The notes beneath the pieces were generated by a model, which saw nothing but the letters and a program-made list of their open reading frames with translations, was not told the origin of the DNA and ran no database searches. A stretch of DNA of 64,000 bases, from contig NZHD01000051.1 of NCBI GenBank assembly GCA_002691205.1, positions 2,901 to 66,900 on the forward strand. Direction: 5' to 3'. A program made the translations under genes and the position numbers. Shown one piece after another: positions 20,426 through 64,000 of the stretch (within the stretch, counting starts at the first letter, position 1; every line of letters begins with the position of its first letter). This DNA is from Deltaproteobacteria bacterium (GTDB taxonomy: Bacteria > Myxococcota_A > UBA9160 > UBA4427).

Positions 20426-20503
20426 ACTTACTCCTGTGCGAGCACGCCCCCCAGCGCGACCACCGGATCCCCTCCGGAAGCGAAGCCTAAAGATATCCGC
20501 TGC

Positions 20504-20833: not shown

Positions 20834-20885
20834 CGCTTCCTTCCTAGATCCCTTCGGCCAACACTGCGCGATGGAAATGGCGCCG

Positions 20886-21203: not shown

Positions 21204-21306
21204 CTCTATCCCCTGTCAGTGCCCACTCGCCACAATCTGCCCCCAGTCGGTCCTCAGCTCTCCCCTGGACAGACCCTTCTTCATTCTTTCCGCCGGCGGG
21301 CCAACG

Positions 21307-21340
21307 TGCCCCTCTCCTCGTATCTCAAAGGAGAGGGGCA
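21307..21340 (-). terminator. Strong GC stem-loop between rpsA and ihfB (partial terminator/attenuator or RNA-stability element)
   Basis: Perfect 10-bp inverted repeat GCCCCTCTCC (21308-21317) / GGAGAGGGGC (21330-21339) with a 12-nt loop, starting 6 nt after the rpsA stop. No U-tract follows on the minus strand, so it is not a canonical intrinsic terminator. Confidence 0.45.
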
Positions 21341-21345
21341 TGCCT

Positions 21346-38739: not shown

Positions 38740-39836
38740 CTCGGCGAAGGACTTGAAAGTTCGGCTAAGGCCCAGTGCGCGTGTTCAGCGAGCAAAGGAT
38801 CCTGCCCCTCGGCAAAGCGTTGAATGAGCGGACGCAGTTGCTCATCCTTCCGGTTGCCCGCGGCCACCAGAGCGTTCCGCATGAGACCCCGATACCCCGA
38901 CCGACGCAACGCGGTGCCCCGGGTCGCTTCGCGCCACTGGGCTTCATCTAAAGAGAGAACCCAGTGAAGTTCGGCGTCGACCCAACGCGGGTCCGGCCGA
39001 AGCCGCTCCCGCAGGCCCAAAGGGTCAGGGAGTTCTCGTTGGTCTGGCTTCCGATTCCATGGACAAACGTCTTGACACACATCGCATCCAAAAATCCATT
39101 CCCCTTGCGCGTTTCTTAACCCCGGCTCGGTGACCCCTCGGTCTTCAATGGTCAAATACGAGATACAGCGACGCGCATCGAGCACATACGCATCCACAAA
39201 TGCGTCGGTGGGGCATGCATCCAGACAGGCTCGGCAAGTGCCGCAATGGTCGGTTTCAGGGACATCAAAATCGAGTTCTAAATCGGTCATCACTACGCCC
39301 AGTAACAATCGAGAGCCGAGTTCTCGATCAATCAAACATGTATTTTTCCCCTGCCAACCCAACCCGGCCCGCGCTGCATAAACGCGTTCCAAAACAGGCC
39401 CCGTGTCCACATAACAACGCGTTGAAACCTCATGACCCGCCAATGCTTGCATGCCGATCCCAAGCGCTTTGACACGGTCAAGTAAAACCTCATGGTAATC
39501 CGCCCCCCCCGCGTACCCGGCCACACCTCGCCCCGTCGAGGAATCGCCGCCTCCTTGAGCCGATTCAGGAGAAGGGTGAGCCAGCGCGAGCGCCACGATG
39601 CTTCGTACTCCCGGCATGAGTTTCTCGGGTGAAGCTCGCTCAGACGCACGCTCGGCCATATACGTCATGGACCCGGCGTAGCCTCTCTCGAGCCATTCGG
39701 AAAGGAACTCCGTTTCAAGGCTCTCCTGAGGCGAACAAATTCCGACTCGATCAAAACCCAAGGCCTGGGCGAGAGAACGCACTCGATCAGATAGTGTGGG
39801 CGCCCTCTGCGTTGGCTTCACTTCAAGCTCGCTCAC
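38736..39836 (-). CDS. queG: tRNA epoxyqueuosine(34) reductase
   Basis: Two ferredoxin-type clusters (CGTCRACLDACP, CDVCQDVCPWN) and a C-terminal HEAT-like region. GTG start overlaps the exosortase stop (GTGA at 39833-39836). Confidence 0.85.
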   Translation of the reverse strand: MSELEVKPTQRAPTLSDRVRSLAQALGFDRVGICSPQESLETEFLSEWLERGYAGSMTYMAERASERASPEKLMPGVRSIVALALAHPSPESAQGGGDSSTGRGVAGYAGGADYHEVLLDRVKALGIGMQALAGHEVSTRCYVDTGPVLERVYAARAGLGWQGKNTCLIDRELGSRLLLGVVMTDLELDFDVPETDHCGTCRACLDACPTDAFVDAYVLDARRCISYLTIEDRGVTEPGLRNAQGEWIFGCDVCQDVCPWNRKPDQRELPDPLGLRERLRPDPRWVDAELHWVLSLDEAQWREATRGTALRRSGYRGLMRNALVAAGNRKDEQLRPLIQRFAEGQDPLLAEHAHWALAELSSPSPS

Positions 39837-40675
39837 GACACCGCATTTTCACCGCTTGACCGGCGGTCCACCCAGCGAAGAAAAGCCCCCATGCCCAACA
39901 AGGCGCCGCAGGCGCACAGGTACGTAAAAATACCCACCCACTCGTGAATCGCACTACCCGTTGCCGCCTCGACGCCCGCGGTCTGTGCCATCTGTACAGA
40001 GAGAAGAACACGAGCGAGGTTGCCCAGTAAGGCGACAGGCAGAACGGTCAGGATAAGAAGGATGCGCCGGAGCAATCGGTGATCGGTGAAATAAGCCAGA
40101 ATCACACCCAGAGGAACCAAAGTCAGCAAGGAAGTAATGCCACTGCAGGCTTCCGCCACAAAAAGCTGATCGCCACCGGGAAGTTCGATCACATTGCCCC
40201 TGCGCAGGACCGGATCTCCCATCGCATGCAAAATGCTGGTCCCCAATTCGCTCACCCAAAGTTGTAACTGCCCCGTCAGAGCCGCCAGCCATGGCTCGGG
40301 CCAAGGCACCATAAACAGCAGAAAACCGATGGGGAACATTAAAGTCTTGAGCCAAAAACGACCACGCAGCAGAAGCACCCCTCCCGCCACCGAAGCCACC
40401 ACTGAAACGCCCACCCAGGTCATGGACCCCACCAACCAACCAATCAGATAGACCGACAAAGCTCCAGCCAGCACCCAAAGGCCTCGAATATCCCAATCCG
40501 AATCAAGCAAAGGGAGGACTCTCCGTTTGCTGCTCGCGGCCCACAACGCGACTAGGGGGATGAAATAACCATGCGAATAGTACGGAGAAGCACTCCAGAC
40601 CTCCGCCAGAGCGGCGAGTCCAGGAGCCAACACCAAAGCGAGCAATCCCACTAAGACCCAGTCCATTGTGCGCAT
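39833..40675 (-). CDS. Exosortase (EpsH/Xrt family transpeptidase for PEP-CTERM proteins)
   Basis: About 8 TM segments. Family catalytic motifs FVAEACSGITSL (Cys), LLGNLARV (Arg) and SAIHEWVGIF (His). I start at ATG 40675 (MRTMDWVLVGLL...). The 154-aa N-terminal extension in the track ORF is non-hydrophobic and overlaps the opposite-strand sulfotransferase. Confidence 0.8.
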   Translation of the reverse strand: MRTMDWVLVGLLALVLAPGLAALAEVWSASPYYSHGYFIPLVALWAASSKRRVLPLLDSDWDIRGLWVLAGALSVYLIGWLVGSMTWVGVSVVASVAGGVLLLRGRFWLKTLMFPIGFLLFMVPWPEPWLAALTGQLQLWVSELGTSILHAMGDPVLRRGNVIELPGGDQLFVAEACSGITSLLTLVPLGVILAYFTDHRLLRRILLILTVLPVALLGNLARVLLSVQMAQTAGVEAATGSAIHEWVGIFTYLCACGALLGMGAFLRWVDRRSSGENAVS

Positions 40676-40840
40676 AGCCGCTTTCGCTCCCCTTCGATTA
40701 CTGCCGAAGTCTACCCGGTTCATCGGGACAGTGGAGGCCAGAGTTGAAGCCCTTTGCGTAAAACCCTCTCCTGTGAGAGGCTTTCCCTCGAAGATCGTAA
40801 AAAAAGTCCCCACCCTCACGGAATATGGAGAAAAAAGAGC

Positions 40841-41851
40841 GTGCAAGAACAGCTGGTGTTTATAATCGGAGCGCCTCGTTCTGGATCCACCCTGCTCGCC
40901 CGAATGCTCGGGGCGCATAGCGAAATCCATGCCCCCGCCGAGCCTCATCTGCTGACTCCCCTCGCCCACCTTGGCTACTACGAGCGCGTGGACGAAGCCC
41001 CTTATGATCCAATTATCAGCCAACTTGGCATCCGCGAATTGGTGCCTGCGCTTCCCCATGGCGAAGCCGATTACCTCAAAGCACTGCGCAGCTACACGGA
41101 TGACCTCTACTCGGGACTGCTGGCCAATACAGGAGCCCACCTCTTGCTCGACAAAACGCCGGCCTATGCGTTAGTCCTCGACTTTGCGGCACGACTCTAT
41201 CCCAACGCACGCTACGTTGTCCTCACGCGCCATCCCATGGCCATCTGGTCTTCGGTCATCGAGTCCTTCTTTGACGGCGATCACGAAATGGCCCACAAGC
41301 ACAACCCTGTGATCGAACGGTATGTGCCTGCCATTGCAAAATTTCTGCAAGATCCACCCGTACCCATTCATCACATTCCCTACGAATCTCTCGTTAAGGC
41401 ACCGGAAGAGCACATGCGTTCGGTGAGTGAATTCCTCGGTATTGAGTTTGAGGCCTCTATGGTCAATTACGGAGACGGCCAGTCCCAAAATGCCGCCGCT
41501 CGAGGCCTCGGCGACCCCATGAAAGTGGCCACCGAAAAGCGCCCCACGACCGGATCCCTGGCCAAATGGGCCGAGCAGTTAAACGGAAGGCCCGAGCGAG
41601 TTGCCCAGTGTCGATCCATCTTAAACCGCTTAGATGATGCAGACCTCGCGACCTGGGGCTTTTCTCGACAAGAGATCGAAGATCAACTCGCAGCGGTGGA
41701 CCCCGCCGGCCCCCGCGCAGCCGGCCCCAAACTCAGTCGCCATGTCCTTGAACGAAAGCTTCTGCTCGCCTTGCGTCGCAGAGTGGGCGAAAATTGGTCC
41801 GGCCGCGTAGTCCGCCGAGTCAGAGAGATCTGCGACCTTCTTCTACGTTAG
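40841..41851 (+). CDS. Sulfotransferase family protein
   Basis: PAPS 5-prime phosphosulfate-binding loop IIGAPRSGSTLLARML and a later RHP motif region. GTG 40841 lies 10 nt after a GGAG. The track ORF starts at 40754. Confidence 0.7.
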   Translation: MQEQLVFIIGAPRSGSTLLARMLGAHSEIHAPAEPHLLTPLAHLGYYERVDEAPYDPIISQLGIRELVPALPHGEADYLKALRSYTDDLYSGLLANTGAHLLLDKTPAYALVLDFAARLYPNARYVVLTRHPMAIWSSVIESFFDGDHEMAHKHNPVIERYVPAIAKFLQDPPVPIHHIPYESLVKAPEEHMRSVSEFLGIEFEASMVNYGDGQSQNAAARGLGDPMKVATEKRPTTGSLAKWAEQLNGRPERVAQCRSILNRLDDADLATWGFSRQEIEDQLAAVDPAGPRAAGPKLSRHVLERKLLLALRRRVGENWSGRVVRRVREICDLLLR

Positions 41852-51129: not shown

Positions 51130-51180
51130 TTCCGGGTTCTGCCCTTTTCACTCTTCCTCACGCGCCAAGCCGCGTCGTTT

Positions 51181-52884
51181 CTAGGGCCAACGGGCGAACA
51201 CTCGAAACGAAAGACCATGATCTTGAATCCCGAGGTCGCCAACCGGTGCAAAATCAAGCAGTTGCGCGCCATAGCTGAACTCGGCTCTGAACCACGGAGT
51301 GGGAGACCAGATGGCGTTGACACCTACGCTCGCCAGATTGGTATCTCCTCCGCGTCCCGACCGGCCGTGGCTCCAAGAGCGCCCAAAATCGGCAAACGGC
51401 CCCGCTCGGAGAACACTTCGCCCGGAAGGCTCCAGGCGCAAAGGAAGAGACAGTTCAAAACCCAGCGCATATCCGTTATCGCGCACAACGGCATTCTCAC
51501 GGTAACCACGCACACTGTAACGGCCCCCGATCGCATACCGCTCAAAAGGCAAAAGAGGATCCAACGCCAGCTGAACACTGCCTCTAAACCCCACTTCTAT
51601 TCCACTCTCTGCATGTCTCCATCGCCACTCGGCTTGCCCAAGCCAAGCCGCAAATTCTGCGGTGTCCGTCTCTCCACTCGTCGCCCCCAAGATATCTAAA
51701 CCCACACTCCATGTGGAACGCAAAGCTAAGGCCTGATTCGGGCGCTGGGTGGTCCACTCTTGATAAAATCGCAGAACACTGTCGCGGACCTCACCCTCCG
51801 CATTCGCTGCATCCGAAAAAGCAAACGGAAAACCGCCCACAGTGGAGCGACTCTGCCTCCACTCTCCACGGACTCCCACGACGAGAGACGACCCATTCGC
51901 CGACCAAAGCCGTTGGGTCAGGTCCACGGCTCCCATCCAATACGTACTATCGACATCAAAGCCCGAAAGACTTCCATCGACAATCGCCGCATCCGTGTAA
52001 CGAAAGTCCACAGCCAGCTCCGTTCCCCAATTGGAAACAGGCACGTCATAGTGAACCAAAATGTCTCGCAATCCCTCGGAGAGACCCAAAATGGCCCCCA
52101 GCCTATCTCCCTGGCCTATGGGATTCAGCAGCCCCACCGAGAGGTGGCCGGCCATCTCTCCAATCAAAGGGTTTAATTCATTTCCGAAATCGAGAGCCCC
52201 AGTAAAGCGACGACTCTCCACGACCTCAACCTCAAGAATCGCCTCACCTGCCTCCATTCCTGGAACGAGACGAGCCCGTAACGTTCGAATCCCCGGCTCC
52301 GCCTCAAGCGACTTCAGTCGTCGCTCAAGGGTAAAAGCATTCAGAGGTTCGCCCTCAAGACCCTCAAGGCGAGACTCTAAATACGTCGCGCGATAGTGGC
52401 CTTCGCCGCGCACAACCACACGGCCGAGTCGGCCTTCGATCACTTCAAGCCGGAGGGCTCCGGCCGTGACGTCCTGATCCGGCCAACGGACTTGTGTATT
52501 CACGTAGCCCGCTTTGATGTAGAGCCCCGCTAGGCTCGATCGCAATGTCTCAATTTGCTCGCCATCAAGAACGCGCCCCATAAATCCCTGGGTCAGTCTC
52601 GCAATCACCGCTGGGTCAAGCACCGTATTGCCGACAACATAAATTTCATCGACGCGCACACGCGCTCCGCCCGACATCGTCGTCGAACGCTCCGCCGGAA
52701 TCGGTGGCAAACGAATGGGCGCAGGGCCCATCAACGCCTCACCCACAACCGGGATCGGGCGGCGGCCCGGAAAGTCGGGCACCGACGGAACCTCCTGGGC
52801 CAAAGAAGCCGAGGCCTGTAAAAAAAACCACGCCATGGCGACCCAAAGGCCTGCTCTCCCCAACGAGAACCCTGGCCTCACCAA
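51181..52884 (-). CDS. ShlB/FhaC/HecB-type two-partner-secretion outer-membrane transporter (TpsB)
   Basis: Signal peptide (...FFLQASASLA|QE). POTRA_2-like segments (VRVDEIYVVGNTVL...GYVNTQVRWPDQDVTAGALRLEVIEGRLGRVVV). Beta-barrel ending in an aromatic residue (FRVFARWP). TTG/GTG start directly abuts the tpsA stop. Confidence 0.85.
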   Translation of the reverse strand: MVRPGFSLGRAGLWVAMAWFFLQASASLAQEVPSVPDFPGRRPIPVVGEALMGPAPIRLPPIPAERSTTMSGGARVRVDEIYVVGNTVLDPAVIARLTQGFMGRVLDGEQIETLRSSLAGLYIKAGYVNTQVRWPDQDVTAGALRLEVIEGRLGRVVVRGEGHYRATYLESRLEGLEGEPLNAFTLERRLKSLEAEPGIRTLRARLVPGMEAGEAILEVEVVESRRFTGALDFGNELNPLIGEMAGHLSVGLLNPIGQGDRLGAILGLSEGLRDILVHYDVPVSNWGTELAVDFRYTDAAIVDGSLSGFDVDSTYWMGAVDLTQRLWSANGSSLVVGVRGEWRQSRSTVGGFPFAFSDAANAEGEVRDSVLRFYQEWTTQRPNQALALRSTWSVGLDILGATSGETDTAEFAAWLGQAEWRWRHAESGIEVGFRGSVQLALDPLLPFERYAIGGRYSVRGYRENAVVRDNGYALGFELSLPLRLEPSGRSVLRAGPFADFGRSWSHGRSGRGGDTNLASVGVNAIWSPTPWFRAEFSYGAQLLDFAPVGDLGIQDHGLSFRVFARWP

Positions 52885-55347
52885 TCAGTCCCTATCTGCC
52901 AAGCGCCAACGTCCACCGCAGCCTGGATCGAATCCATCCAGTTGCTGACGCACACTGCCCCCTTGAGGCGAAAGCGTCTGAGAGGTCGCGCCTTCTGAGG
53001 AGGCGCCTCTCGGACCTGAAGGGAGATAGCCATCGAGAGCGGGCGGCCTCGATGGCCGACCTTCTATGACGAACGAACTGTCGCCCACATCTCTTCGCGC
53101 TGCACACTGAGCCCGCAGCAATGCTGAGACATCCAAGTACGAAACGGGAAGAGGCTCCACCTGCCCGGCCACATCCACCTGAGGCGCGTTGATGGTCACC
53201 ACACCGTCTACACCCCCATCAAATGAAGAGGGGATAATCGCTGAATCCGCTGACTCAAGCAGGTAGTCGGCCGAGAGATCGATGTTTCCACCGCTGCCCT
53301 CTTTAGCCGAACTCACCAATTCGCTTTCGTTCAGAACGAGATACTGCGGCCCTCCCTCCTGACCCACTCGGATATTCCCCCCGCTTCCGTCCTCTTTGCT
53401 GACCTTCGTCTCCACCTTACTCCGAATGAACTCGATGCGAGCGCCCGCCGCGATCGTGATTTCGCCGCCCTCAGAGGCCGCCAATGCCTCTGCGTTCAGC
53501 TCGGCATCGCGCATAAAAATATTGTGATCGGCCATCACGTTGAGTTCACCGGCAGACGCCTCACCGAGGCTACTCACGGTCACAAAGCCCCCGTCTACGA
53601 TCGATATGTTCTCAGCCTGTAAGAAAACAGAACCCGAAGCTCCATCATCCGCCCGAGCGGCGATTTCGCTTCCCTGACCCGAGAGAGAACCACTCACAAG
53701 AAGGTCACCCTCTAGCCTCACATCCACACTGCCCGTATCCGCAGGCGTTTGAAGCGTACTGGCGGAAATCGTTCCGCCTTGGGTGACCTCAAGACTCCCC
53801 GCGCGAACCGAAATATCGCCGGCCTTTGCGCCTGGAAAAGTCAAGGCGGACCCCTCCTGATAGAGAGCCCGAGCTAAGAGTCCAGACCGCGCGTAACTCC
53901 AGGCCCCGTCTTCCCAACTGCGCAAGACGCCCGAGATCACGACCGACCCCGCCATGTCCACGCGAATATCGCCGCCTACTAAATCCCGGTACACCGGCGT
54001 GCGGATCTGTCCTCCATTGACGAGACGGAGATTTCCTCCCTCCACCCAGATGGCACCGGCCGGCCCTCCCCCAGGCCGGGGCAGTGAAAACAACACACTG
54101 CCCTCGTCAAGGCTCACTTCCTCGGACCCCACGACATGCAGGCCCACCGGACTTCCAGACGACCCTTCGTTGAGACCTTCGGTTTGGAGCCCGATAACGT
54201 TCACCGAAGACCCTCCTGTGAGTGAAACCGTCTCGCCTCGAATCTCCACGGGGGCCGCCGAGGACTCAATCAGAGAGACCCCCTCATTTCCAGCGGCAAG
54301 CAAAACCTCAGGGGCCGAGATGCGAATCGCAGGCCCCGAGACAAGCCCCTCATCGACGAACCTTTTTAAGGTCGACGCTTCCAAAGTCATTGAATGACCG
54401 GCTTTCAAATCCATAGCGGGCCCTTGGGCATTCCCTCCGGAATAAATCTCCGTGCCCCCCACTAGACGAAGTACGCCTCCCTCAAGAAGGACTCGACCCC
54501 CTCCTGCCCCGCCTCCCATTCGAGAGTCCAAACGTGAGCCTTCAAGCTCAATCAAAGCCTCCTGACCTACCTGCGCCAAAGGAAGATTTGATTCGCCGCC
54601 CACCGAAAGAGGAACTTCCACCGCGCTGTGCCCGGTGGCCACGAGATGAATCACGGATCCAGGCACCTCCACTTTTCGGGAGATCAAACCCACTTTTCCC
54701 GCCACGATTCTAAACGCGTTAAAGCTCCCCACACCGACAAAGCCCGGGATGGAAGGATCTGCAGTCAGGGTCACACCGGGCAACGGCGCATCGCCCTCGG
54801 TGCCTTCAAAAACCAACGAAACCGGCTCTCCCGAGCAGCACCCGCTCGCAGACCACGGGCTTCCGTCCACCGGGAATGCGCCGTCCGAAAAACGCACCGC
54901 ATTGGCGGTGCTCAAGGTCAGCCCTCCGGACAAATTATAGAAGGCACCGCTTGGTCCCACCGTGATACCGTGAGGGCTTAAGAAATAAAGATCTGCCCCA
55001 ACGTGTTCCGAAAACACCGAGCCATTGATCAGGGCTGGACTTTCACCCGTCAATCGAACAAAGACATGATCGAACAAGCCCGGCCCTGCAAAGCCCACAT
55101 TCTCAGAAGGGTCCACCGAAAACTCGGAAAAGCTGTGAAAAAGATTCCCACCCGCTTGCTCACCGCGCGTCGAATCAACCTCGTATGTGTAAGCCTCGCT
55201 CCCCGGCGCAACACCGCTCCCCCCAGCCCCCACCGTGCCATCAAAAACGACCTGGGTCCACGCCGCCTCGACAAAGAAGAGCAACAGGAGCAGAGCGCTC
55301 CAAATCGGCCGAGCGATTCCTCGATTAAAAAAAATGAGTCGAATCAT
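52885..55347 (-). CDS. TpsA-like exoprotein with filamentous-haemagglutinin N-terminal (TPS) secretion domain and beta-helical body
   Basis: Signal peptide, then the TPS-domain hallmark GGNLFHSFSEFSV (codons at 55129-55146) and ALINGSV...DLYFLSPHGITVGP, a divergent NPNGI box. The rest is Gly/Ser/Val-rich repeats. ATG 55347 shares its A with the upstream TGA (TGATG). The track start is TTG 55350. Confidence 0.8.
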   Translation of the reverse strand: MIRLIFFNRGIARPIWSALLLLLFFVEAAWTQVVFDGTVGAGGSGVAPGSEAYTYEVDSTRGEQAGGNLFHSFSEFSVDPSENVGFAGPGLFDHVFVRLTGESPALINGSVFSEHVGADLYFLSPHGITVGPSGAFYNLSGGLTLSTANAVRFSDGAFPVDGSPWSASGCCSGEPVSLVFEGTEGDAPLPGVTLTADPSIPGFVGVGSFNAFRIVAGKVGLISRKVEVPGSVIHLVATGHSAVEVPLSVGGESNLPLAQVGQEALIELEGSRLDSRMGGGAGGGRVLLEGGVLRLVGGTEIYSGGNAQGPAMDLKAGHSMTLEASTLKRFVDEGLVSGPAIRISAPEVLLAAGNEGVSLIESSAAPVEIRGETVSLTGGSSVNVIGLQTEGLNEGSSGSPVGLHVVGSEEVSLDEGSVLFSLPRPGGGPAGAIWVEGGNLRLVNGGQIRTPVYRDLVGGDIRVDMAGSVVISGVLRSWEDGAWSYARSGLLARALYQEGSALTFPGAKAGDISVRAGSLEVTQGGTISASTLQTPADTGSVDVRLEGDLLVSGSLSGQGSEIAARADDGASGSVFLQAENISIVDGGFVTVSSLGEASAGELNVMADHNIFMRDAELNAEALAASEGGEITIAAGARIEFIRSKVETKVSKEDGSGGNIRVGQEGGPQYLVLNESELVSSAKEGSGGNIDLSADYLLESADSAIIPSSFDGGVDGVVTINAPQVDVAGQVEPLPVSYLDVSALLRAQCAARRDVGDSSFVIEGRPSRPPALDGYLPSGPRGASSEGATSQTLSPQGGSVRQQLDGFDPGCGGRWRLADRD

Positions 55348-58300
55348 CAACTCCCCGCAGCGGCCTCACACTGGTCGGACTCAAACTCAGCCGGCGGCGA
55401 AGACTGCCCCAGGGTCCGCTTGTGAATCACAGCGTCACGAATCGTACATTCTGCGTCATTGTCCACGCTACACCGCTCCCCCACTTCAGCGTCCACTGGG
55501 TCCACCAACTGAGAAAGTAGCGCAGCTAGATCCACCGATTCACTGCCCGAAATCCATCCGTCGCCGGTCGCCTCGCCACACTGACAAGCATCGCCGATGC
55601 CCTCAGGAAGGTTCGAATCGATCCACTCCATCCCGCCCGAATCAATCTGTGAGGTATTGGCCGTGTAAATACAGTTGTCGTCTTCATTCCGTCGCTCGTC
55701 CTCATCGACATCTTCCGACATTGTGCTTGCAACGCCATTCGACGACACGCCGCAGGGCTCATCACACGCAAACAGGACACCCGGGTCGTAGTACTGAGCA
55801 TCCGACAGAAGAGGCTGACTTGCACACCACGAAACCGGAGCGGCGAATTCAGAGGCATCCGGCAAAAGCAAGCTCGGCAAACGATCCTCCACGCTGCAGC
55901 CGGGCGAATACTCGGGCTCACCCGGTTCGGGACAAGGGCTCAGATCCACACTCGGCGATATATTCAAACGCCCCACGCACTGAAGGTCCTCTAGTCCAGG
56001 CGTCAAGGCCCCTAAACTCGGCTCGGTCATGCTCAGATTCCCCTCGACCACGAGAAAGAGATAACCGTCGGTGGCACTCGATGGGTCCGTATCCTCCCAA
56101 GCAAATGATGCGCCGTCTACATCCCCGGAAGAGTAGTCAAGGCCGTCCGCATTTACCGAGGAGTAAACGGCATCCTCAGAGGAAGCGTCGTACAGCGAAG
56201 ACGCCCCATCGTCACACCACATCCGTCCGTCCGCATCGAGAGTCCCGTCGCAATCTTGCCATGAAATCGTGTGATCCCACTGACCGTCGCTATCGTCATC
56301 AACCAGGGGCGGTTCCGCGGCCACCGTCAAACGATGCAGTAAATACGACGGCGAAGTGAAACAAAGCTCAAAAACACTCACATCATCAATCGCCTGCCCC
56401 ACTAACGGGAGGAGTTGGGCTTCCACGCAGGTCGAACTCGACGACGCCCCCGAAGTTCTCATCATTCGAGAGGAACGGCACGGTGTGGCGGTCCGAGAGG
56501 ACATCACACGAAAACGGCTGATTGCATCCGTGTCGGAAACCACAGGAAGAATCCCGCCCGCACGGCCCATTGAAACATTCACAGCCGGGCGCGAGGCGGG
56601 TCGAGGTATGGGCGGAGCCCATACGAGATCGCCCATATGCTCGACCACACCTGCCGTGCACAAGTCCTCGGTCGCTTTCAACAAAACATAGAGGGTGTCT
56701 GGGCGCAGACCGCCGAAGCCCACCTGACTATTCGCTCCCCAAGCGTCGGTCACGAAGACCCCGGACTCGCTCCGATCCAGAACTGAACCTAGATATGGAC
56801 TGCCCGTCGGAACCTGACTACATCCACTGCATCCCATACACAGACTCTCAGGCGCCTCACACACTGAACCCACGGGTCCGCCAAACGTGAAATCATCCGC
56901 AGAAGCACCCAGTGGCGTGAGCGCCACCAACATTTCGTCAATGTCGGCCACAGCGCCGCACTCAACCTCGAGCCTCCAACGATCTTCCCCTAGGCCGTCT
57001 GGGTCTTCAATCAGGTGAACCACAGTTTCTTCGCAGGCGTCTCCCACGCCATCTTGATCCGCATCCGCCTGAGCTGCGTTGGAAACTCGCAGGCAACTAT
57101 CGCAGCGGTCCCCCACCGAATCCCCATCAAAGTCCAGCTGATCTGAATTCGGGACGGTGGGACAGTTATCCACAAAATCGGAGTGACCGTCCTGGTCTGA
57201 GTCCTGCAAATGCAGTTGCCAGACCACACCCCCATCACTGGGCGTGCCCACCGGAACCGCATTGGCTCCCACCCACAGTTCCGGCTCGCCGTCCCCGCTC
57301 ACGTCGGCCACCGCGACAGATCGGCCAAACAGAGTCGAGGCCTCGATCACGCCCCCAGGCACATCGAGCTTGTCAATAAAAACGCCCCCCTCGATGGTGC
57401 TGCCCCCCATCAAAGGCATCATTTGCAAAACGACAACGCCCCCTTCTTGCTGTGTTCCGCTGCCATAAGCCCCGGCCAAAAGGTCTGTGTCGCCATCCGC
57501 ATCGATATCCCCGAGCGGCGTCAGCGAATTTCCAAGACCTGAAACAGAAACGTTAGCGGCCGGAAAGCGAGCCACACCCGAATCGATGGTGTCCTTCACG
57601 ATCCCCCCCGACTGCGAGGTCAAGGAAACGATTTGAATGGCTCCTCTCTGATTGGGCCCTCGACCGGGTGAACCGACGGCCAGTTCGACGCCCGTTCCTC
57701 CATAAAGATTCCCCAAAAAGGCTAAGGATGCTCCAAATTGATCTCCGTCAGTGAGAGAAGCTGAGCCCAAAGATCCATTGCCCAGAGTCGTAGCGGACTT
57801 GAGCGTACCGTCTGATTTCAAGTTCAGAATCTCAATCGCGCCGCAACCCAACACACAGCCGATAGGCGCATCTGGATGGCCAACCACGACATCCGAAACG
57901 CCGTCGCCGTCTAAGTCTCCAATCCCTGTGACCGATTTAGGCGCGTAGGCCATCTGAAACCGAACCGTACTCCTCACTTCAGGCAGAGGCGAGAGCGCCG
58001 TACGAGCGCTTAAGAAAAGAATAAAAACGTAGCGTCGCCCTGGAGCCACAACGGCCAACTCCGTGACTCCGTTGCCGTCTAAATCTCCGATCGCGGCCAG
58101 ACCGGCTCCAAATCCATCGCCGGCCAGAATAATACTTTTGTATTCAGGCGTATCGGAACCAAACTGAATGACGTCATCCACCGTCCCGTCACGCCGCATG
58201 AGCAAAAGCAGGACCGCACCCGCGTTATTGTTATAGCTCGGTGCGCCCAGGGCGAGGTCGGACACTCCGTCTCCATTGAGGTCACCCACGGCGGCCACCG

Positions 58301-59138
58301 ACTCGCCCAGCTTCCAATCGAGCGAAAGGTTGAGCCCATCGGGCGTAATGGGGTTCACCGTCTCAATTTCATCGGCGCGAATAGCGTTTGCCGAACTCAA
58401 AAGGAGGCTCAATCCCAAAATTAAACCGGCTGCACCTCGGACTCGACGACGTGCAAGAAACCCTAAGCCGGTGAGCCCTGAAAGCAGCAGCAAACCAAAA
58501 CCGGGTTCGGGCACTAAAATCTGTCCCGCGTCCACTGAGACTTCATCCATACTGACCTGGACCGCTGAACTCGTCGCCATCACCATCAACTCGGGCGGAT
58601 CATGCTCATCGCCCACCGAGGTCCACGCCAAATCCAAAGTCCCTACACACTGAGAAGAACCCGCACTGAGAGGACTCGTATCGTACAACCAACTCAAACC
58701 CAGTTCGCTAACAGGATGGGCCGCGAGTTCAGCATCAGTTTTTGAGGCCACTAAAACGATCGATCCACACTCCACAAAACCCTCAATCAGAACCGGATTT
58801 TCCGTGTTCGCCGGGACTTCAAGATCAAGCTGCCAGGCACAAAGTTCATCGCCGGAACCCGTCGCTGCGTCGCAGTCGGCCGCGGGGCTTGTCGAAGCCG
58901 TCGCCCCCACCTCCAAGCAGAGAGTAAAACTCTCCGTGGGCGCCGAAGGAATGGAAAAAACCACACCTGAACTCTCCACGGGAGCCCAGACCGTCGCCGC
59001 GTCTTCAATCGCGCAACAACCCGAAACCGATCCCTCGCAGAGATAAAACTCGGGGGTTCCTGCGAAGCCGATCCCCTCTCCCAGCCACAGAATCAGTGTG
59101 GCCCATCCCCAAATGCGTCGTATTCTAGCTCCCGCCAT
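55347..59138 (-). CDS. Giant multidomain surface protein: signal peptide, Cys-rich N-domain, internal PEP-CTERM signal, second signal-peptide-like helix, six FG-GAP (integrin-alpha-like) repeats, thrombospondin type-3 repeats, Cys/Asp-rich C-region
   Basis: FG-GAP calcium motifs at a ~60-aa period: [80 protein letters not shown] and [16 protein letters not shown] (nt 57261-58286). TSP3 reads [35 protein letters not shown] (nt 57030-57206), with a second copy near the C-terminus ([16 protein letters not shown]...GIGDACQCG). Confidence 0.75.
58383..58451 (-). other. Signal-peptide-like segment immediately after the PEP-CTERM signal (aa 230-252)
   Basis: RRRVRG (n-region), [13 protein letters not shown] (h-region), SANA|IRADE (AxA-type cleavage site). 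Confidence 0.55.
58434..58514 (-). other. Internal PEP-CTERM sorting signal (aa 209-235 of the 1263-aa ORF)
   Basis: [27 protein letters not shown] is the complete tripartite PEP-CTERM pattern (PEP motif, TM helix, Arg cluster), but it is followed by 1028 more in-frame codons rather than a stop. Confidence 0.7.
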
Positions 59139-59265
59139 ATTCTCATCCGCTTATCATCATCAGCAGCTGCGGTCCTGAGCCTCTATTCTACTCGCTTTAG
59201 CCCTCAGGATGTCGCAAACCTTGTTTTTGTGGTGCCCCTGAAGCTGAAGTCGGTGACGATTAAAA

Positions 59266-59294
59266 AATCGGATCAGAAAAATATGAATCCGATT
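59266..59294 (-). terminator. Weak terminator-like hairpin between the CHAT gene and the giant gene
   Basis: Inverted repeat AATCGGAT (59266-59273) / ATCCGATT (59287-59294) with a 13-nt loop, followed on the minus strand by T5-6 (plus-strand A-run 59262-59267). The stem is AT-rich, so only moderate termination is expected. Confidence 0.35.
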
Positions 59295-59317
59295 GCCCCT
59301 CCGGGGGACATCGGCCC

Positions 59318-61651
59318 TCAAAGCCAACTTCCGATCATCTGAAAAGGGGCCCAAAAAGCTGGGTGCCGATAGCGAAAATCCTGCCTGAGTTCTCTTTGTG
59401 CCTGGGCCAGCGCCTCGGCCCGAGAAACCCCTGCGGTCAACAGATGCCGATAAAAAGCGGTCACCAGCCGAGCCGTCGCCGGATCATCCACACTCCAGAG
59501 GCTTCCAAGAGCGCTTCGGGCCCCCGATTGAACAGCGATGCCCGACAAGCCAAGCGCAGCCCGTGGGTTGCCCTCGGCCGTTTCGCACGCGCTCAGGGTT
59601 AGCAACTCAAGGGGCTGCTCACGAAAACGAAAAGTTCCGATGTCCTCCGCCAAACCCTTCATTGAGAGTCGGCCGTCCGCTGTCACAAGAAAAGCACTCT
59701 CCTCAAGTCCAGAAAAAACAGCATGAGTCGCCAGATGAACCACGCTGTAGGGCTCCTCGGCCAGGCGTTCCCTTAAACGGGATCGACGAAAGGCAGCATT
59801 CATTAAGACATCGCCCCCGATCACCGAATGAACTTCTTCGATCTCAAGAGCCACATTTGGAAGAGGCGCAAAGCCGTCAGTGGCTTCGCTTAAACCAGCC
59901 AGCAAGGCACGAGGCCCTTCTTTTTGAAACGGACGTGGGTCTGTTAACTGAAGCCCAGGTGTCAGCGCCACCGCATAGTGATCCACCAAAAATGATTGAC
60001 CGTCGTGAAGCGCTGCCATGGGAATGGTCAACAAGGCGCCCGAAGGAACGAAGACCAGCGTTTTAATCTCGCGCTCTTGCAGCGCCCCCTTCAGGGGCTC
60101 AATCAACCAAGTGTAGAGCCGTTGAGCGTGAGGCAAATAGCGGCGGGTCCCCGCCCGCTCAAGGGTTTGCCGAAACAAAGCCACTTCCGTCTCGACCAAG
60201 GCCCTCGAAACCGCTTTTTCATAGGCCACAATTTCCCCAGTCGGCCAGCTAACCAAGACCACCAAGCGGTCGGCCAATGAGACGGGGTAGAGAATGGCCG
60301 CCTCAGGAGAAACCGCTTCGATACTGGCTAAGCGGTCCTGCAATGCGTCCACGCATTCGTCTTGAAAATAGTCCCTCAATTCGGCGGCTTTGAATCGCTC
60401 CAAGCCATCGCGTGCGCGACGAAGCAGACTTTGACGCACGGCCGAATCTGAAGTCGCCTGAGCCTGATCCAAGAGCAGCCCAACGAAGGCTTCATAGATC
60501 GGCTGAACCTCCTGCTCAAAGGAGGCCCCCTGCCCGTCCCCGCCCCACGGCGTTTGAGTCCGCAGGGGCGCCAAGGCTTCAATGGCCCTTGAGTACGCCG
60601 AGATCGCCTCGGGCCTCCGGCCGAGTTCATTCAAAAGTTCGCCGCGCTGTGACTCAAGTCGATACAATCGAACCGGGTCCGCGATCCGTCTCGCCCGTCG
60701 AAGTGCTCGATTCGTCAATTCCAGGGCTTCACCCCGGCGTCCTTCCATTTGATACAGGGCCCCAAGTTCCCTCAAGGCCACGGTCGCCACGGACTCCGCC
60801 CCCACTTCATCGGCGGTCTCAAGCCCGGCATACAACCATTGTGAGGCCAACACGCGCGATTCCGCTGACGGCACCCCCAGGCTTCTTTCCTGATGACCAA
60901 GATTGACCCAGAGTTCAGCCCGCACATACGAAGGCGGTAAAGTCTCCACTCGAAGGGCCGCTTCTTTTAAAAAAGACTGAGCCCGCTCCGGTCCACTCGG
61001 GGCCGAAACACGAGCCGCATTCCCAAGCGCACGCGCCTCAAGAGCCGAGTCTTGAGCGAGTCCCCCTGCCAACGCACTGGCTTCAAAGTGAGCCAAAGCA
61101 TCCTCGGGAAGCCCCTTCAGCGCCGCCAGAACTCCGAGGTCATTTTCTGCTTCCGCCGTCACTCTCACTTGATCGAAAGTACGCGCTCCGTGGATCGCCC
61201 GGGTGAGCCAGAGAGTCGCTTGCGCCCTCTCGCCTAGGGCTAAAGCCGAAGCGCCTAATGAAGCTTCGATGGCCGGCCGCTTGTTGGATAAATCTCTCTC
61301 ATCTGAAATGGTGAGTGCACGCTCCAGATGCGTCATCGAGGAAGGGACCTCGCCCACCGCTCGCTCACAGCGCGCCAAATCCAGCAGACTCTCCACTTCA
61401 AGGCTCGCCTGGCCCCGGGCCTTCTCCACCGCTTGGGCATAAAGGGCCCGCGCTGACAAAAACTGGCCCTGAGATTCCGCCTGGGCCGCTTTCGCTCTGA
61501 GGCCAGAGACCTCAGACTGACTGCCCACGGTTTGCCCACGAACAAGGCTTGGGGCCATCGCTAACAAAGAGAGGATCAAGCTCAAGAAAAAGAATTCCCG
61601 AAGATAAGATCTCTTCACAAACATAAAGCCCAGACATCGCGATGGGTGCAT
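59318..61651 (-). CDS. Exported TPR-repeat CHAT-domain (caspase-like) protease
   Basis: Sec-type signal (MFVKRSYLREFFFLSLILSLLAMAPSLVRG|Q), about 400 aa of TPR-like helices, then a CHAT domain with a His/Cys dyad in VVHLATHAVFSG (His codon 59723-59725) and LLTLSACETAEG (Cys codon 59585-59587). Confidence 0.8.
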   Translation of the reverse strand: MHPSRCLGFMFVKRSYLREFFFLSLILSLLAMAPSLVRGQTVGSQSEVSGLRAKAAQAESQGQFLSARALYAQAVEKARGQASLEVESLLDLARCERAVGEVPSSMTHLERALTISDERDLSNKRPAIEASLGASALALGERAQATLWLTRAIHGARTFDQVRVTAEAENDLGVLAALKGLPEDALAHFEASALAGGLAQDSALEARALGNAARVSAPSGPERAQSFLKEAALRVETLPPSYVRAELWVNLGHQERSLGVPSAESRVLASQWLYAGLETADEVGAESVATVALRELGALYQMEGRRGEALELTNRALRRARRIADPVRLYRLESQRGELLNELGRRPEAISAYSRAIEALAPLRTQTPWGGDGQGASFEQEVQPIYEAFVGLLLDQAQATSDSAVRQSLLRRARDGLERFKAAELRDYFQDECVDALQDRLASIEAVSPEAAILYPVSLADRLVVLVSWPTGEIVAYEKAVSRALVETEVALFRQTLERAGTRRYLPHAQRLYTWLIEPLKGALQEREIKTLVFVPSGALLTIPMAALHDGQSFLVDHYAVALTPGLQLTDPRPFQKEGPRALLAGLSEATDGFAPLPNVALEIEEVHSVIGGDVLMNAAFRRSRLRERLAEEPYSVVHLATHAVFSGLEESAFLVTADGRLSMKGLAEDIGTFRFREQPLELLTLSACETAEGNPRAALGLSGIAVQSGARSALGSLWSVDDPATARLVTAFYRHLLTAGVSRAEALAQAQRELRQDFRYRHPAFWAPFQMIGSWL

Positions 61652-61670
61652 TAAGCCATTCCGCCTCTGT

Positions 61671-63113
61671 TCACTCTATGCTCGAATCGATTGGCACTCG
61701 GATCTCGACCTGTTCCAATAAATCGCTCCGCGCCTTTTCAACGCCTTCGACGTCTAGACCTGCTTCGGTCCAGTCTGAAAGCTGCCTGAAGGCATCGTAC
61801 CAATACCCTTGCTCGGCCAGCAGGTGCGCCTGCGCGGCCAGTTCGGCCTCCTCCCACTTCACTTGCTGAGCGGGTGTTCGCTCTTGAAAAACCAGCGCGG
61901 CACTCGCTCTCACATCACGAGAACGACGCGCAGCGTCGACCACGGCCGCCGCCTGCCAGCGATACACAACCCCAGCTTGAAGCTCCACACCGAGATCCTC
62001 AAGCGACACCGCGTGAAGCCCCGCTGCCTGAGGTCCGCCTCTCTGAAATTCAACCAGGGGCTCAATCGAAACATCGTCCGCGACCGTGATCTCAATGGGA
62101 AGGGACGTAGGCTCCGAGAGCCAGTAATAAAGCGTGGGGGAAGTCGAACTCGTCCAACCCACATGATCGGGGCCTAAAGCGTACACTTCGAGTGACGAAG
62201 TCCCTCCCGCCGAACGCACTTTCCCATAGGTTCGAACCGACGGCCCGCCCAAAAGGGGAATCTGATCCACTCCATATCGAATTTCCCCAGAAGGCCAATT
62301 CGAAGCCAGGAGCGCGATATCGGGGCCCGCCACGAGGGGCGAAATGTCCGAACTCGGCGACTCAGGCGTGCTCGCGACCTCCACCGTTTTCGGGGGCAAG
62401 ACTTCGGCTTCGCGCGGGGACGGGGCCCTCATCTGATCCACCTCGGGTTGGCTCTCGTTCAGGGCCAAAGCACCTGGGGAGACACCCTTCGCTGCCTCGT
62501 CAGAAGCCAATTCCTGTAGATCAACCGGATCAAGGGGAACCAACGGACTCTCGGGGGCCGGCCTCGTTGAGCTTTCGGCCAGAGTCGGCGCGGGGACCAT
62601 GGGCGCCTCGTCTCTGACCCATAGCCAACCCAGAGGCAAAATCAGAATCGCGAGCGCCGCTGCGGCAAACGTGGGCGAGACCACCCAACCACCGAGGGCC
62701 TCTAGGGCGTTTGAGAAAGCTTTCCTCCACTCCGTCCCAAGAGACACTGAAGCGTCTGGCGTGGACGCCTTCGATGCTACTCCGATCGCGGCAAAATCAA
62801 AACGTTCCAGGACCGTCAACTCCGTCGTACAGGGTGCACACGCTTCCAGATGAGTTTCAAGACCTCGGCGCACGTCAAAATCGAGCGTGGCCGGTGCCTG
62901 CGCGTACGCGAGCAAGACCTCTTCCGAAGGATGATCTCCGGCCGAACTCGGCGCCGCATGTCCCAGCGCCTGCTCAAGTTGCATGCCTCGGCGAACTTCC
63001 CGGGTGCAATCCGAGCAGCTCGGATAATGAGCTCGAAAAGCCGCGTAGCGCGAATCCTCCCGCTCAAGCAGGAAATCCACTACATCAATTTCATCGAAGT
63101 CTTCACAAGGCAT
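61671..63113 (-). CDS. Membrane anti-sigma factor with tandem zinc-binding (HxxxCxxC) N-domains and a periplasmic DUF928-like C-domain
   Basis: Canonical N-terminus MPCEDFDEIDVVDFLLE (ATG 63113; the track ORF starts at TTG 63206). Motifs HYPSCSDC (63006-63029) and HLEACAPC (62832-62852). One TM (62616-62687). Pro/Ser-rich linker. C-domain (61692-62204) reads PTLYYWLSEP..IEITVADD...GVVYRWQAAAVVD...LLAEQGYWYDAFRQLSDW, matching my memory of the DUF928 pattern. Confidence 0.7.
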   Translation of the reverse strand: MPCEDFDEIDVVDFLLEREDSRYAAFRAHYPSCSDCTREVRRGMQLEQALGHAAPSSAGDHPSEEVLLAYAQAPATLDFDVRRGLETHLEACAPCTTELTVLERFDFAAIGVASKASTPDASVSLGTEWRKAFSNALEALGGWVVSPTFAAAALAILILPLGWLWVRDEAPMVPAPTLAESSTRPAPESPLVPLDPVDLQELASDEAAKGVSPGALALNESQPEVDQMRAPSPREAEVLPPKTVEVASTPESPSSDISPLVAGPDIALLASNWPSGEIRYGVDQIPLLGGPSVRTYGKVRSAGGTSSLEVYALGPDHVGWTSSTSPTLYYWLSEPTSLPIEITVADDVSIEPLVEFQRGGPQAAGLHAVSLEDLGVELQAGVVYRWQAAAVVDAARRSRDVRASAALVFQERTPAQQVKWEEAELAAQAHLLAEQGYWYDAFRQLSDWTEAGLDVEGVEKARSDLLEQVEIRVPIDSSIE

Positions 63114-63202
63114 GGCCTGTGTCCTTTGTGCCGTTCGGTCCGCAACGCATAAGTTTTTTATCCCCCTCGCTGTGGACAGTCGTTCCCACATCGCGAATCG
63201 GA

Positions 63203-63778
63203 TCAACCTGAATCAAGAAAATCAACAAGATCCCCTCTTAATTGTGTGAGGCCATCCCTGAGGTACCGTTTAAGAGACCCCAGAGGAATCCCGGTATCCT
63301 CAGCCACTTGATCATAGGTCCGTCCCTGGACGTGAACCCCCAAAACCACAAGACGCTGTTTTTCGGGAAGTCGCTCAAGGGCTTGAGCGAGATCTCGGCT
63401 CATTTCGCCCTCTCCCGGGTCGTCCGCGAGCTGAGCCTCATCTGCCCCGACCACATCCTCCCAAGGAAGAGTCTCATTTTCTTTGGTGCGAGTCTGGGCC
63501 TTCAACCGATCGATAAACTTGAAACGCGCCGTGGTTCTCAGATACCCCACCACCGCCCGCCGGTCCCGAATTTTTCCGTCACGTAACGCCAAGGCCGCCG
63601 CCACAATGACCTCTTGTACCAAGTCATCCCAGTCGCTGCGAAAATCGTAGGCATTCCAACGGCCCAAAAACCCGTTGACCAAACGAGTCAGCCTAGCCAG
63701 AGCAAGCGCGTCTCCTGCCAGCAAGGCTTCGAGTGTCGCCCCCCAGTCTGTCTGACCGCCTGCGGCATTTCCCGTCAT
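63203..63778 (-). CDS. ECF (group IV) sigma-70 family RNA polymerase sigma factor
   Basis: Region 2 (DWDDLVQEVIVAAALAL, RAVVGYLRTTARFKFID) and region 4 HTH (LPEKQRLVVLGVHVQGRTYDQVAEDTGIPLGSLKRYLRDG). I prefer ATG 63778 or ATG 63865. The track start 63955 would overlap the divergent gene. Confidence 0.8.
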   Translation of the reverse strand: MTGNAAGGQTDWGATLEALLAGDALALARLTRLVNGFLGRWNAYDFRSDWDDLVQEVIVAAALALRDGKIRDRRAVVGYLRTTARFKFIDRLKAQTRTKENETLPWEDVVGADEAQLADDPGEGEMSRDLAQALERLPEKQRLVVLGVHVQGRTYDQVAEDTGIPLGSLKRYLRDGLTQLRGDLVDFLDSG

Positions 63779-63910
63779 TCTCACAAGTATGCTCAACTCT
63801 TGAGGCCGTCGCACCCGGCGAACAAACGCACCCAGACCTCGCGCCAAGCCCCGATCTCGAGTCATCCAAAAGATTAAGCATCTAAGCCTTAAACCATTAC
63901 CCTTTGACCT

Positions 63911-64000
63911 ATGGAACTCTGGATCCCTCTCAGCATCGCAGCCGCTTTTCTTCAAAACATCCGCTCAGCGCTGCAAAAGTATCTAAAAGATGCTCTCTCT
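63911..64000 (+). CDS. Partial N-terminus of a membrane protein, possibly EamA/DMT-type permease (continues beyond the window)
   Basis: My translation from ATG 63911 is MELWIPLSIAAAFLQNIRSALQKYLKDALS, which is hydrophobic then amphipathic and resembles DMT-family N-termini. Only 30 codons are visible. Confidence 0.3.
   Translation, partial: MELWIPLSIAAAFLQNIRSALQKYLKDALS

Follow-up and report, generated by a model that had tools for sequence, protein, structure and literature searches.

A myxococcotal sigma factor locus as the predicted ECF-coupled version of a widespread DUF928/CHAT/two-partner secretion module

Towards the end of a 64,000-nucleotide stretch of contig NZHD01000051.1 from a Deltaproteobacteria bacterium, which database names put with the marine Myxococcota (positions 2,901 to 66,900 of the contig; this whole stretch is called the window below and, for this locus, coordinates are given in it), six genes follow one another on the minus strand in the order sigma factor, anti-sigma factor fused to DUF928, TPR-CHAT protein, giant FG-GAP/TSP3 protein, TpsA and TpsB. 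The question that this locus raises is why a sigma factor of the extracytoplasmic function (ECF) class, along with its anti-sigma factor, should share one gene cluster with a caspase-fold protease and a two-partner secretion (TPS) pair. An earlier reading made from the sequence alone had taken the cluster to be a candidate envelope signalling and secretion system. Comparison with other genomes now indicates that the locus represents, in ECF-coupled form, a DUF928/CHAT/TPS module that is widespread and apparently undescribed, and it is probable that the six genes are linked in function, as an envelope cassette for signalling and secretion governed by its own sigma factor.

Gene order, predicted promoters and the wider module

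The list of open reading frames (ORFs) agrees with the layout described in the sequence-only reading: all six genes run in one direction, with 19 nt between the anti-sigma stop (61671) and the CHAT start (61651), a 179-nt gap between the CHAT stop (59318) and the giant start (59138), a single base at 55347 common to the TGA of the giant gene and the ATG of tpsA, and the tpsA stop (52885) abutting the tpsB start (52884). The family assignments all hold in Pfam and NCBIfam, the zf-HC2 and TSP_3 matches lying below cut-off. The genes around the cassette have housekeeping functions (hisD, Sir2, MutS, ribosomal protein S1 and LptD), with tpsB as the last cassette gene and hisD converging on it, and the GC content of the cassette is that of its flanks. 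The coordinates are collected in Table 1.

Homologues of the anti-sigma factor were traced to their contigs and the surrounding genes compared (loci are numbered L004 and so on). Scans of genomes and of metagenomes gave few loci (7 and 9, respectively), one narrow peptide pattern having been used. At least five further Myxococcota lineages have the gene order of the window, although their anti-sigma factors can be as little as about 35-42% identical to the one here and their flanks are unrelated; the cluster is not a chance juxtaposition. The complete six-gene set is present at L004/L015 (42% anti-sigma identity) and L016; L005/L006, L007/L008/L017 and L018 are partial, with the FG-GAP protein split in two or the contig truncated. 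Comparison thus shows the six genes to be one evolutionary unit.

A second link between the genes is a bipartite element, TGATCC-N17-CGACT, which is common to the CHAT/FG-GAP intergenic regions of six lineages. In the 64-kb window it is matched twice at up to one mismatch; both matches (P1 and P2 in Table 1) are perfect and lie on the gene strand within the cassette, and 0.03 perfect matches would be expected in the whole window. The -35 hexamer of P1 starts with the stop codon of the sigma gene (TGA, 63203-63205). An element with no or one mismatch occupies this position in 10 distinct lineages, among them the divergent L029 and L032. This site is independent of the derivation of the motif and emerged on a whole-locus scan. 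The P2-type element is conserved ahead of the FG-GAP gene in L004, L005, L007, L016 and L018. Across seven loci scanned there were 27 matches, at conserved positions, compared with 4.8 in shuffled sequences. The element is absent from DUF928 loci that have no sigma gene.

Recognition of TGATCC-N17-CGACT by the sigma factor is thereby strongly supported, although as a prediction from sequence. Because the two copies front the two gene units, the predicted regulon is the whole cassette except the sigma gene. The simplest reading would be two sigma-dependent units, anti-sigma-CHAT from P1 and giant-tpsA-tpsB from P2, and the overlapping and abutting stops and starts of the latter agree with a single unit. 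The view of the locus as a regulated variant with DUF928 fused to an ECF anti-sigma factor is strengthened by these results, the genes being co-inherited and the two units being joined by a conserved sigma-type motif.

Some further signals were found or sought in the same regions. At L004 (~9278, -) and L016 (~1978, -) an element on the opposite strand lies upstream of the sigma gene and faces divergent genes, which may be extra regulon members; those of L004 (8083-9129 and 7161-8018) have no Pfam match. A 'GAGGTC' similarity upstream of some sigma genes was dropped, as it is too near the start codon and probably reflects coding or lineage conservation. No match was obtained in an Rfam scan of 50900-64000, and a promoter and terminator scan of the region predicted no sigma-70-type promoter and no excess of terminators.

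The sequence-only reading had noted that DUF928, CHAT, TPS and ShlB-type proteins recur as neighbours in cyanobacteria. This association is real and is not confined to that phylum: it was found in Thermodesulfobacteriota, Pseudomonadales, Desulfobacterales, unclassified metagenome-assembled genomes (MAGs) and Oscillatoria. Stand-alone secreted DUF928 proteins of about 220-280 aa were retrieved with the domain profile, and lie with TPR-CHAT, TpsB and TpsA at L011, L013, L014 and L022, with CHAT and TpsB at L010, and with TpsA and three DUF928 paralogues at L012 (Oscillatoria). When the search started from CHAT instead, the two loci examined, L022 and L023, both led to the same picture. An NHL protein at L013, which lacks an export signal, was rejected as a member of the module and probably has no relation to it.

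In most DUF928 loci without a sigma gene, the neighbour is instead a membrane protein combining CHASE2 with a guanylate/adenylate cyclase, which is directly beside DUF928 at L010, L011, L012, L019, L020, L021, L022 and L031. L029 has both a CHASE2-cyclase and a sigma/anti-sigma-DUF928 pair. At L030 (506-2131, +) the N-terminal domain joined to DUF928 is of another sort: it has several hydrophobic helices, lacks ZAS motifs and may represent a third type of membrane partner. Other parts of the module are fused as well: at L019 (10567-14934, -) and in P0142 TpsA and TPR-CHAT are a single polypeptide, with TpsB, DUF928 and CHASE2-cyclase as neighbours, and in the L019 fusion TPR-CHAT starts right after the C-terminal motif of TpsA. 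A further pair of parts, anti-sigma factor and TPR-CHAT, is joined in DdvA (PMC11506125).

The number of anti-sigma-DUF928 fusions was estimated with a HMMER scan of 1.84 billion representative sequences, in which DUF928 gave thousands of matches. Among the best 150 matches, for which the architecture was assessed, 105 new clusters at 50% identity carry both modules (so there are at least 105), and two HxxxCxxC motifs are present in 92 of them. Because the neighbourhoods recur and fusions link the parts, the core of the module is DUF928, CHAT, TpsA and TpsB, with interchangeable inner-membrane transducers.

Table 1 Features of the cassette and related features in the window
Feature	Coordinates	Strand	Product or size	Remarks
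ECF sigma factor	63203..63778	-	191 aa (MTGNAAGG...)	Probable start ATG 63778, from orthologue alignment; longest ORF 63203-63955, 250 aa
Single-pass anti-sigma factor with DUF928	61671..63113	-	480 aa (MPCEDF...)	Start 63113 from orthologue comparison; longest ORF 61671-63206, 511 aa
Exported TPR-CHAT protein (predicted)	59318..61651	-	777 aa	His643/Cys689 dyad
Giant FG-GAP/TSP3 protein	55347..59138	-	1263 aa
Internal PEP-CTERM-like element and second signal-peptide-like segment	58371..58514	-	residues 209-256 of giant
TpsA	52885..55347	-	820 aa from ATG 55347	Signal peptide, TPS domain, beta-helix, C-terminal motif, Cys748-Cys810 loop; longest ORF 52885-55350, 821 aa
TpsB outer-membrane transporter	51181..52884	-	567 aa	TTG start, giving a canonical signal peptide
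Predicted promoter P1	63178..63205	-		Perfect TGATCC-N17-CGACT, ahead of anti-sigma gene
Predicted promoter P2	59248..59275	-		Perfect TGATCC-N17-CGACT, inside the 179-nt gap ahead of giant
Exosortase, EpsH family	39833..41140	-		Pfam 1.3e-52; about 14 kb away

Components of the signalling and secretion apparatus

The sigma factor has sigma2 and sigma4 domains only (Pfam Sigma70_r4_2, 2.6e-11, 43.4 bits against a cut-off of 25.7; Sigma70_r2 marginal, 2.6e-5, 24.4 bits against 24) and matches the NCBIfam sigma70-ECF profile TIGR02937 (59 bits, cut-off 42.9), as expected of an ECF (group 4) sigma factor. Again in keeping with this class, an apparently cognate anti-sigma gene is directly downstream and a bipartite predicted promoter motif occurs in its own locus. 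The start at 63778 was picked by alignment with orthologues of 188-191 aa and most likely fits them better than the database start at 63865, which adds about 30 non-conserved residues. Among solved structures, SigH/SigE and R. sphaeroides RpoE come nearest to it. DdvS of Myxococcus xanthus was rejected as the nearest sigma factor, being absent from the closest solved sigmas. The text of the Casas-Pastor ECF classification mentions neither CHAT nor TPS.

The anti-sigma factor was modelled with AlphaFold2 as two N-terminal helical bundles, a transmembrane (TM) helix at about 147-167, a disordered linker at 169-291 rich in Pro, Ala and Glu, and a DUF928 domain at about 296-470. The N-terminal, cytoplasmic part contains two HxxxCxxC sets of the ZAS type which are fully conserved across 19 aligned homologues; the ligand residues are C3/H29/C33/C36 and H88/C92/C95, the second set being preceded by an upstream His. 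An alignment with ChrR has an E-value of 0.3. Together the motif sets, the helical bundles in the model and the TM helix have the features of a zinc-binding ZAS class I anti-sigma factor, and a predicted single-pass protein of this HxxxCxxC type should hold the ECF sigma factor in the cytoplasm.

At its other end the DUF928 match (PF06051) has an E-value of 7.9e-17 and 62 bits against a cut-off of 26, covering residues 336-502 of the 511-aa ORF. It is strongly supported by comparison that the protein presents this domain to the periplasm at the end of a long, disordered tether. The model of DUF928 (pLDDT about 90) is an FN3/Ig-like beta-sandwich with four helices, and a Foldseek search with it returned generic FN3 and carbohydrate-binding module (CBM) folds alone, with E-values above 1e-3. 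Because these matches are to generic FN3/CBM folds, the modelled domain looks like a binding module rather than an enzyme.

A linear double-Arg motif, 11-19 residues ahead of the first DUF928 strand, is strongly conserved in stand-alone and fused proteins alike. It reads Y-x-P-P-x-R-G-A-P-x-G-R-x-G-G-G-T-R-G in the former and G-G-x-S-V-R-T-G-G-x-V-R-S in the latter. The core common to both is R-x-G-G-x-x-R-[GSA], its arginines being R294 and R300 in the protein of the window.

The TPR-CHAT protein has strong Pfam matches to CHAT (2.5e-63, 214.7 bits) and TPR_12 (1.5e-11), and the motifs of its dyad, HLATHA and LSACET, show no variation in sets of 8 and of 28 homologues. Its AlphaFold2 model (pLDDT 89, pTM 0.85) has a TPR superhelix on a caspase fold, so that profile, dyad and fold are all those of a TPR-CHAT protein of clan CD. 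The top full-length Foldseek matches of the model were craspase Csx29 (2.4e-14), DdvA (8e-13) and separase. The link to DdvA and craspase came from the structure model, because a search of PDB sequences with the protein or its profile gave TPR proteins alone. It is thus strongly supported, from the profile match and the model, that this is an exported Cys protease of the separase/craspase type with an intact dyad.

The sequence-only reading had placed an export signal or a TM segment on each product except the sigma factor. This was borne out: judged by eye, the N-termini of TpsB, TpsA, the giant and the CHAT protein are signal-peptide-like, and the anti-sigma factor has its TM helix.

TpsA and TpsB have the domains and the abutting genes of a two-partner secretion (type Vb) system. 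TpsA matches the Pfam TPS domain (1.5e-14, 54.9 bits against 33.5) and TIGR01901 (adhes_NPXG, 38.1 bits against 29.1), and TpsB matches ShlB (7.8e-20, 72 bits), POTRA_2 (6.3e-17, 61.6 bits) and Omp85 (4.7e-8). The tpsB start at 52884, which retains the signal peptide, suits the orthologues better than the database start at 52782, which removes it. Export of TpsA by TpsB is therefore strongly supported as a prediction from these families. The TpsAs of these systems share a C-terminal motif, ...LP..(Y/F)LD...L...C..R....SSF...GR.G..P.P.G.LP, and 8 out of 9 have a second Cys near the C-terminus; in the window the pair is Cys748 and Cys810, the latter 10 residues from the end.

A possible signalling route and its alternatives

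How such parts might work together is suggested by what is established for related proteins. ECF anti-sigma factors are released by site-1 and then site-2 proteolysis. The craspase protease Csx29 cleaves Csx30, the inhibitor of an ECF-like sigma factor (PMC10028731); in DdvA a periplasmic TPR-CHAT region has been proposed to be the protein's own site-1 protease, with RseP acting next (PMC11506125); and HetF, the founding CHAT protease, cleaves after Arg (PMC9457339). The TPS proteins HMW1 and HxuA are anchored in their TpsB partners by a periplasmic disulfide loop (PMC5422565).

From these precedents the following route can be proposed. TpsA would stay tethered in TpsB through a periplasmic C-terminal disulfide loop and serve as the outward-facing element; this step is suggested because the HMW1/HxuA loop is a precedent and the paired Cys residues are conserved here. 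A surface event would then activate the periplasmic CHAT protease, whose TPR arm would bind the linear R-x-G-G-x-x-R motif just ahead of DUF928. Cleavage after Arg would remove the bulky DUF928 domain and constitute the site-1 cleavage of the anti-sigma factor, a step proposed because of the Csx29/Csx30 and DdvA precedents and the Arg specificity of HetF. The remnant would be open to further trimming, after which an RseP-type protease would free the sigma factor. The freed sigma factor would drive P2, giving more giant, TpsA and TpsB, and P1, giving more anti-sigma factor and CHAT and so a reset. The DUF928/CHAT/TPS set of other phyla would be wired to the CHASE2 membrane nucleotide cyclase, not to an anti-sigma factor.

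Taken as a whole, cassette and mechanism combined, this is the explanation towards which we lean slightly. The specific step in which CHAT cuts the DUF928 region is put forward tentatively, by analogy, and we would not bet on it by itself. We infer surface or contact sensing by the cassette. More doubtful is the general form of the proposal, in which TpsB-anchored TpsA would report a surface event, CHAT would relay it by cutting the DUF928 Arg motif and DUF928 would gate interchangeable outputs, the whole being a widespread trans-envelope pathway. It is similarly speculative that the outputs of such a pathway would be either an ECF anti-sigma factor (the fusion clusters, of which there are at least 105, being mainly Myxococcota-like) or a CHASE2 cyclase (in cyanobacteria, Desulfobacterota and Gammaproteobacteria).

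Several observations weigh against this explanation. Cleavage of DUF928 by CHAT is proposed by analogy alone, and autoproteolysis of DdvA has itself not been observed (PMC11506125). After a cut at the motif, about 120 residues would remain as a periplasmic stub, which would need further trimming before an RseP-type cut, and the generic FN3-like sandwich of DUF928 gives no clue to function. The zf-HC2 match of the anti-sigma factor is weak (E 0.0053, 17.3 bits against 22.2, under the Pfam cut-off). With regard to the promoters, the -35 hexamer TGATCC is without the usual ECF 'AAC', and no element is found upstream of the sigma gene of the window even at 3 mismatches, so that autoregulation of sigma is not evident; in the L005, L007 and L018 lineages an element is located 140-260 nt upstream of the sigma gene. 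Finally, the set is not always intact: at L005 and L007 no TpsB adjoins, the TPS gene being followed by other genes, and L009 retains the sigma factor, the anti-sigma factor and a CHAT fragment alone.

The alternative that survives best, which we nevertheless consider rather unlikely, is that the sigma pair is a local regulator of an adhesin/secretion operon and that CHAT matures or releases TpsA and/or the giant, as SphB1 does for FHA. DUF928 would then sense an unrelated periplasmic ligand and DegS/Prc-type proteases would degrade the anti-sigma factor. TPS systems with accessory proteases for maturation are known (PMC5422565), the TpsA-TPR-CHAT fusions of L019 and P0142 would suit such a role, and the 'GR(G/P)G..P.P' sequence at the TpsA C-terminus, just before the predicted periplasmic anchor loop, is a plausible CHAT site. 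What this leaves unexplained is the constant presence of DUF928 in the set, its tie to an inner-membrane transducer (anti-sigma factor, CHASE2-cyclase or the multi-TM protein of L030) and the predicted co-transcription of CHAT with the anti-sigma gene and not with tpsA. A maturation role and a sigma-release role of CHAT are compatible with each other.

A little less likely again is a reversal of roles, in which DUF928 would be a securin-like pseudosubstrate or inhibitor of periplasmic CHAT; a signal would free CHAT for other targets and the anti-sigma factor would shift its conformation or be cut elsewhere. Separase, a structural relative of the CHAT protein of the window, is governed by a pseudosubstrate inhibitor (PMC11506125), and the conserved linear motif ahead of DUF928 might just as well be an inhibitory peptide; sequence alone cannot separate this scheme from the cleavage route. 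It requires, however, an unspecified second step for the release of sigma.

A conflict system, whether contact-dependent inhibition (CDI) or caspase-like death or defence, delivered via TpsA is very improbable. CHAT proteases do act in CRISPR type III-E and in a DdvA-regulated defence island, and some TPS systems are CDI systems (PMC5422565). Against this, a PADLOC scan of the six proteins matched none of them, and the gene content is not that of CdiB/CdiA/CdiI: TpsA is short, at 820 aa, its TPS domain is the only domain match with no toxin or VENN-type C-terminal domain, and tpsA is followed only by tpsB and then by the convergent hisD, with no immunity gene. The housekeeping surroundings and equal GC content also speak against it. 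That unrelated genes adjoin by chance is barely conceivable, given an order that persists where the flanks differ and anti-sigma identity is 35-42%, a common promoter motif, families that co-recur across phyla and domain fusions.

To return to the proposed proteolytic release of sigma, the cassette operates most like two described systems, DdvS/DdvA and craspase/Csx30. DdvS/DdvA of Myxococcus xanthus (PMC11506125, PMC6061681) is also from the Myxococcota and also pairs an ECF sigma factor with a zinc-binding single-pass anti-sigma factor that has a long flexible periplasmic linker, and DdvA is among the structural matches of the CHAT model (8rw5 and 8rot, about 1e-12). DdvA, however, carries TPR-CHAT in the anti-sigma polypeptide, whereas here CHAT is a separate exported protein and the anti-sigma factor has DUF928. 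The promoters differ (GTAA-N16-CGT for DdvS, TGATCC-N17-CGACT here), as do the regulons: that of DdvS is CBASS/CRISPR, and that predicted here consists of surface and secretion proteins with no match to a defence model. In type III-E craspase, Csx29-Csx30-CASP-sigma (PMC10028731), a TPR-CHAT protease likewise cleaves the inhibitor of an ECF-like sigma factor, and this enzyme is the best structural match of the CHAT protein (7x8a_D, 2.4e-14; 8eey_B). It differs in being cytoplasmic, activated by RNA via Cas7-11 and devoted to defence, with no membrane, DUF928 or TPS component.

Three other systems share single features. In PUMA3 (VreA/VreI/VreR) of P. aeruginosa (PMC2729926, PMC5422565) an ECF pair controls the TPS pair PdtA/PdtB, but the anti-sigma factor is of the FecR type, VreA is receptor-like, there is no CHAT or DUF928 and the TPS genes are members of the regulon, not candidate parts of the sensor. 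None of the six proteins here has a FecR, Plug or TonB_dep_Rec match in Pfam, unlike the components of TonB-dependent cell-surface signalling. HMW1 and HxuA have a C-terminal Cys pair comparable with the Cys748/Cys810 of TpsA, whose role as an anchor is a prediction from sequence, and their anchor regions are unrelated in sequence to it. Lastly, a literature search gave no account of the DUF928/CHAT/TPS association, with the exception of a CHASE2/DUF928 neighbourhood in Nostoc punctiforme (PMC5587647), in which DUF928 is again beside a membrane signal transducer; the adjacency is mentioned there in passing, and CHAT, TPS, a sigma link or a mechanism are not mentioned. The cassette is a member of neither DdvS/DdvA nor craspase, nor of PUMA3, because CHAT is separate, the sensor is DUF928, there is no FecR/TonB transducer, the context is not one of defence and the promoter is different.

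We class the cassette with ECF signalling by regulated proteolysis; the DUF928/CHAT/TPS module from which it is built is phylogenetically broad and apparently undescribed. To our knowledge neither DUF928 nor the extracytoplasmic TPR-CHAT proteins, which are abundant, have a known function, and the proposed route, if true, would give a role to both. It would also be a third, modular configuration in which a CHAT protease controls an ECF sigma factor, beside DdvA and craspase, and would provide the long-orphan CHASE2 sensor domain with a protein partner. Two-partner secretion would become part of a sensory device and not just an export route, giving the first type Vb secretion system to act as a sensor and the first free periplasmic caspase-fold site-1 protease. 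If TpsA is the sensor and CHAT the relay, this would be a new route of trans-envelope signalling. The predicted promoters and cleavage motif make the mechanism directly testable.

The giant protein and neighbouring genes

The giant protein consists of a signal peptide, a Cys-rich N-domain, an internal PEP-CTERM-like hairpin, FG-GAP beta-propeller repeats, TSP3 repeats and a Cys-rich C-terminal region. FG-GAP is matched at 1e-19 and TSP_3 at 4.1e-5, slightly under the curated cut-off, and an NCBIfam MtsC-like TSP3 stretch is matched at 3.7e-18, far under the equivalog cut-off. Orthologues are present in every full cassette and are split into two genes in L005 and L007.

Two descriptions in the sequence-only reading did not stand. 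It had called the giant a PEP-CTERM protein, but the motif (VPEP, a hydrophobic helix and RRRVRG) is at residues 209-236 of 1263 and not at the extreme C-terminus expected of an exosortase substrate, and the scores with the NCBIfam PEP-CTERM models, 21 and 19.5 bits, are under the cut-offs of 50 and 100. It had also seen an adhesin-like cargo in it; because the giant has no TPS domain and has its own export signals, it is not a cargo of TpsB in the usual sense. Straight after the internal element comes a second signal-peptide-like segment, which ends in ANA, and this arrangement is kept in all five aligned orthologues. One polypeptide could in this way give rise to two exported products, or a two-helix membrane hairpin could form. 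Processing of the motif by the exosortase encoded elsewhere in the window (Table 1) is conceivable.

Genuine PEP-CTERM proteins adjoin TPS genes at L011 and L023. No homology was found between the N-domain of the giant and the PEP-CTERM protein of L011. L023, from an unclassified bacterium (12282-15398, - and 19994-21631, -), has CHAT/TPS/ShlB together with an FGE-sulfatase-TSP3 protein, which resembles the C-terminal half of the giant, and a protein with a genuine C-terminal PEP-CTERM.

Antisense to the giant/tpsA junction there is a 374-aa ORF at 55235-56359 (+), Arg/Pro-rich and of low complexity, which can almost certainly be dismissed as a gene. At 43656-45128 (+), some 6 kb away from the cassette, a Ser/Thr protein kinase is fused to a cyclic-nucleotide-binding domain, which is notable solely since the sister systems have a nucleotide cyclase.

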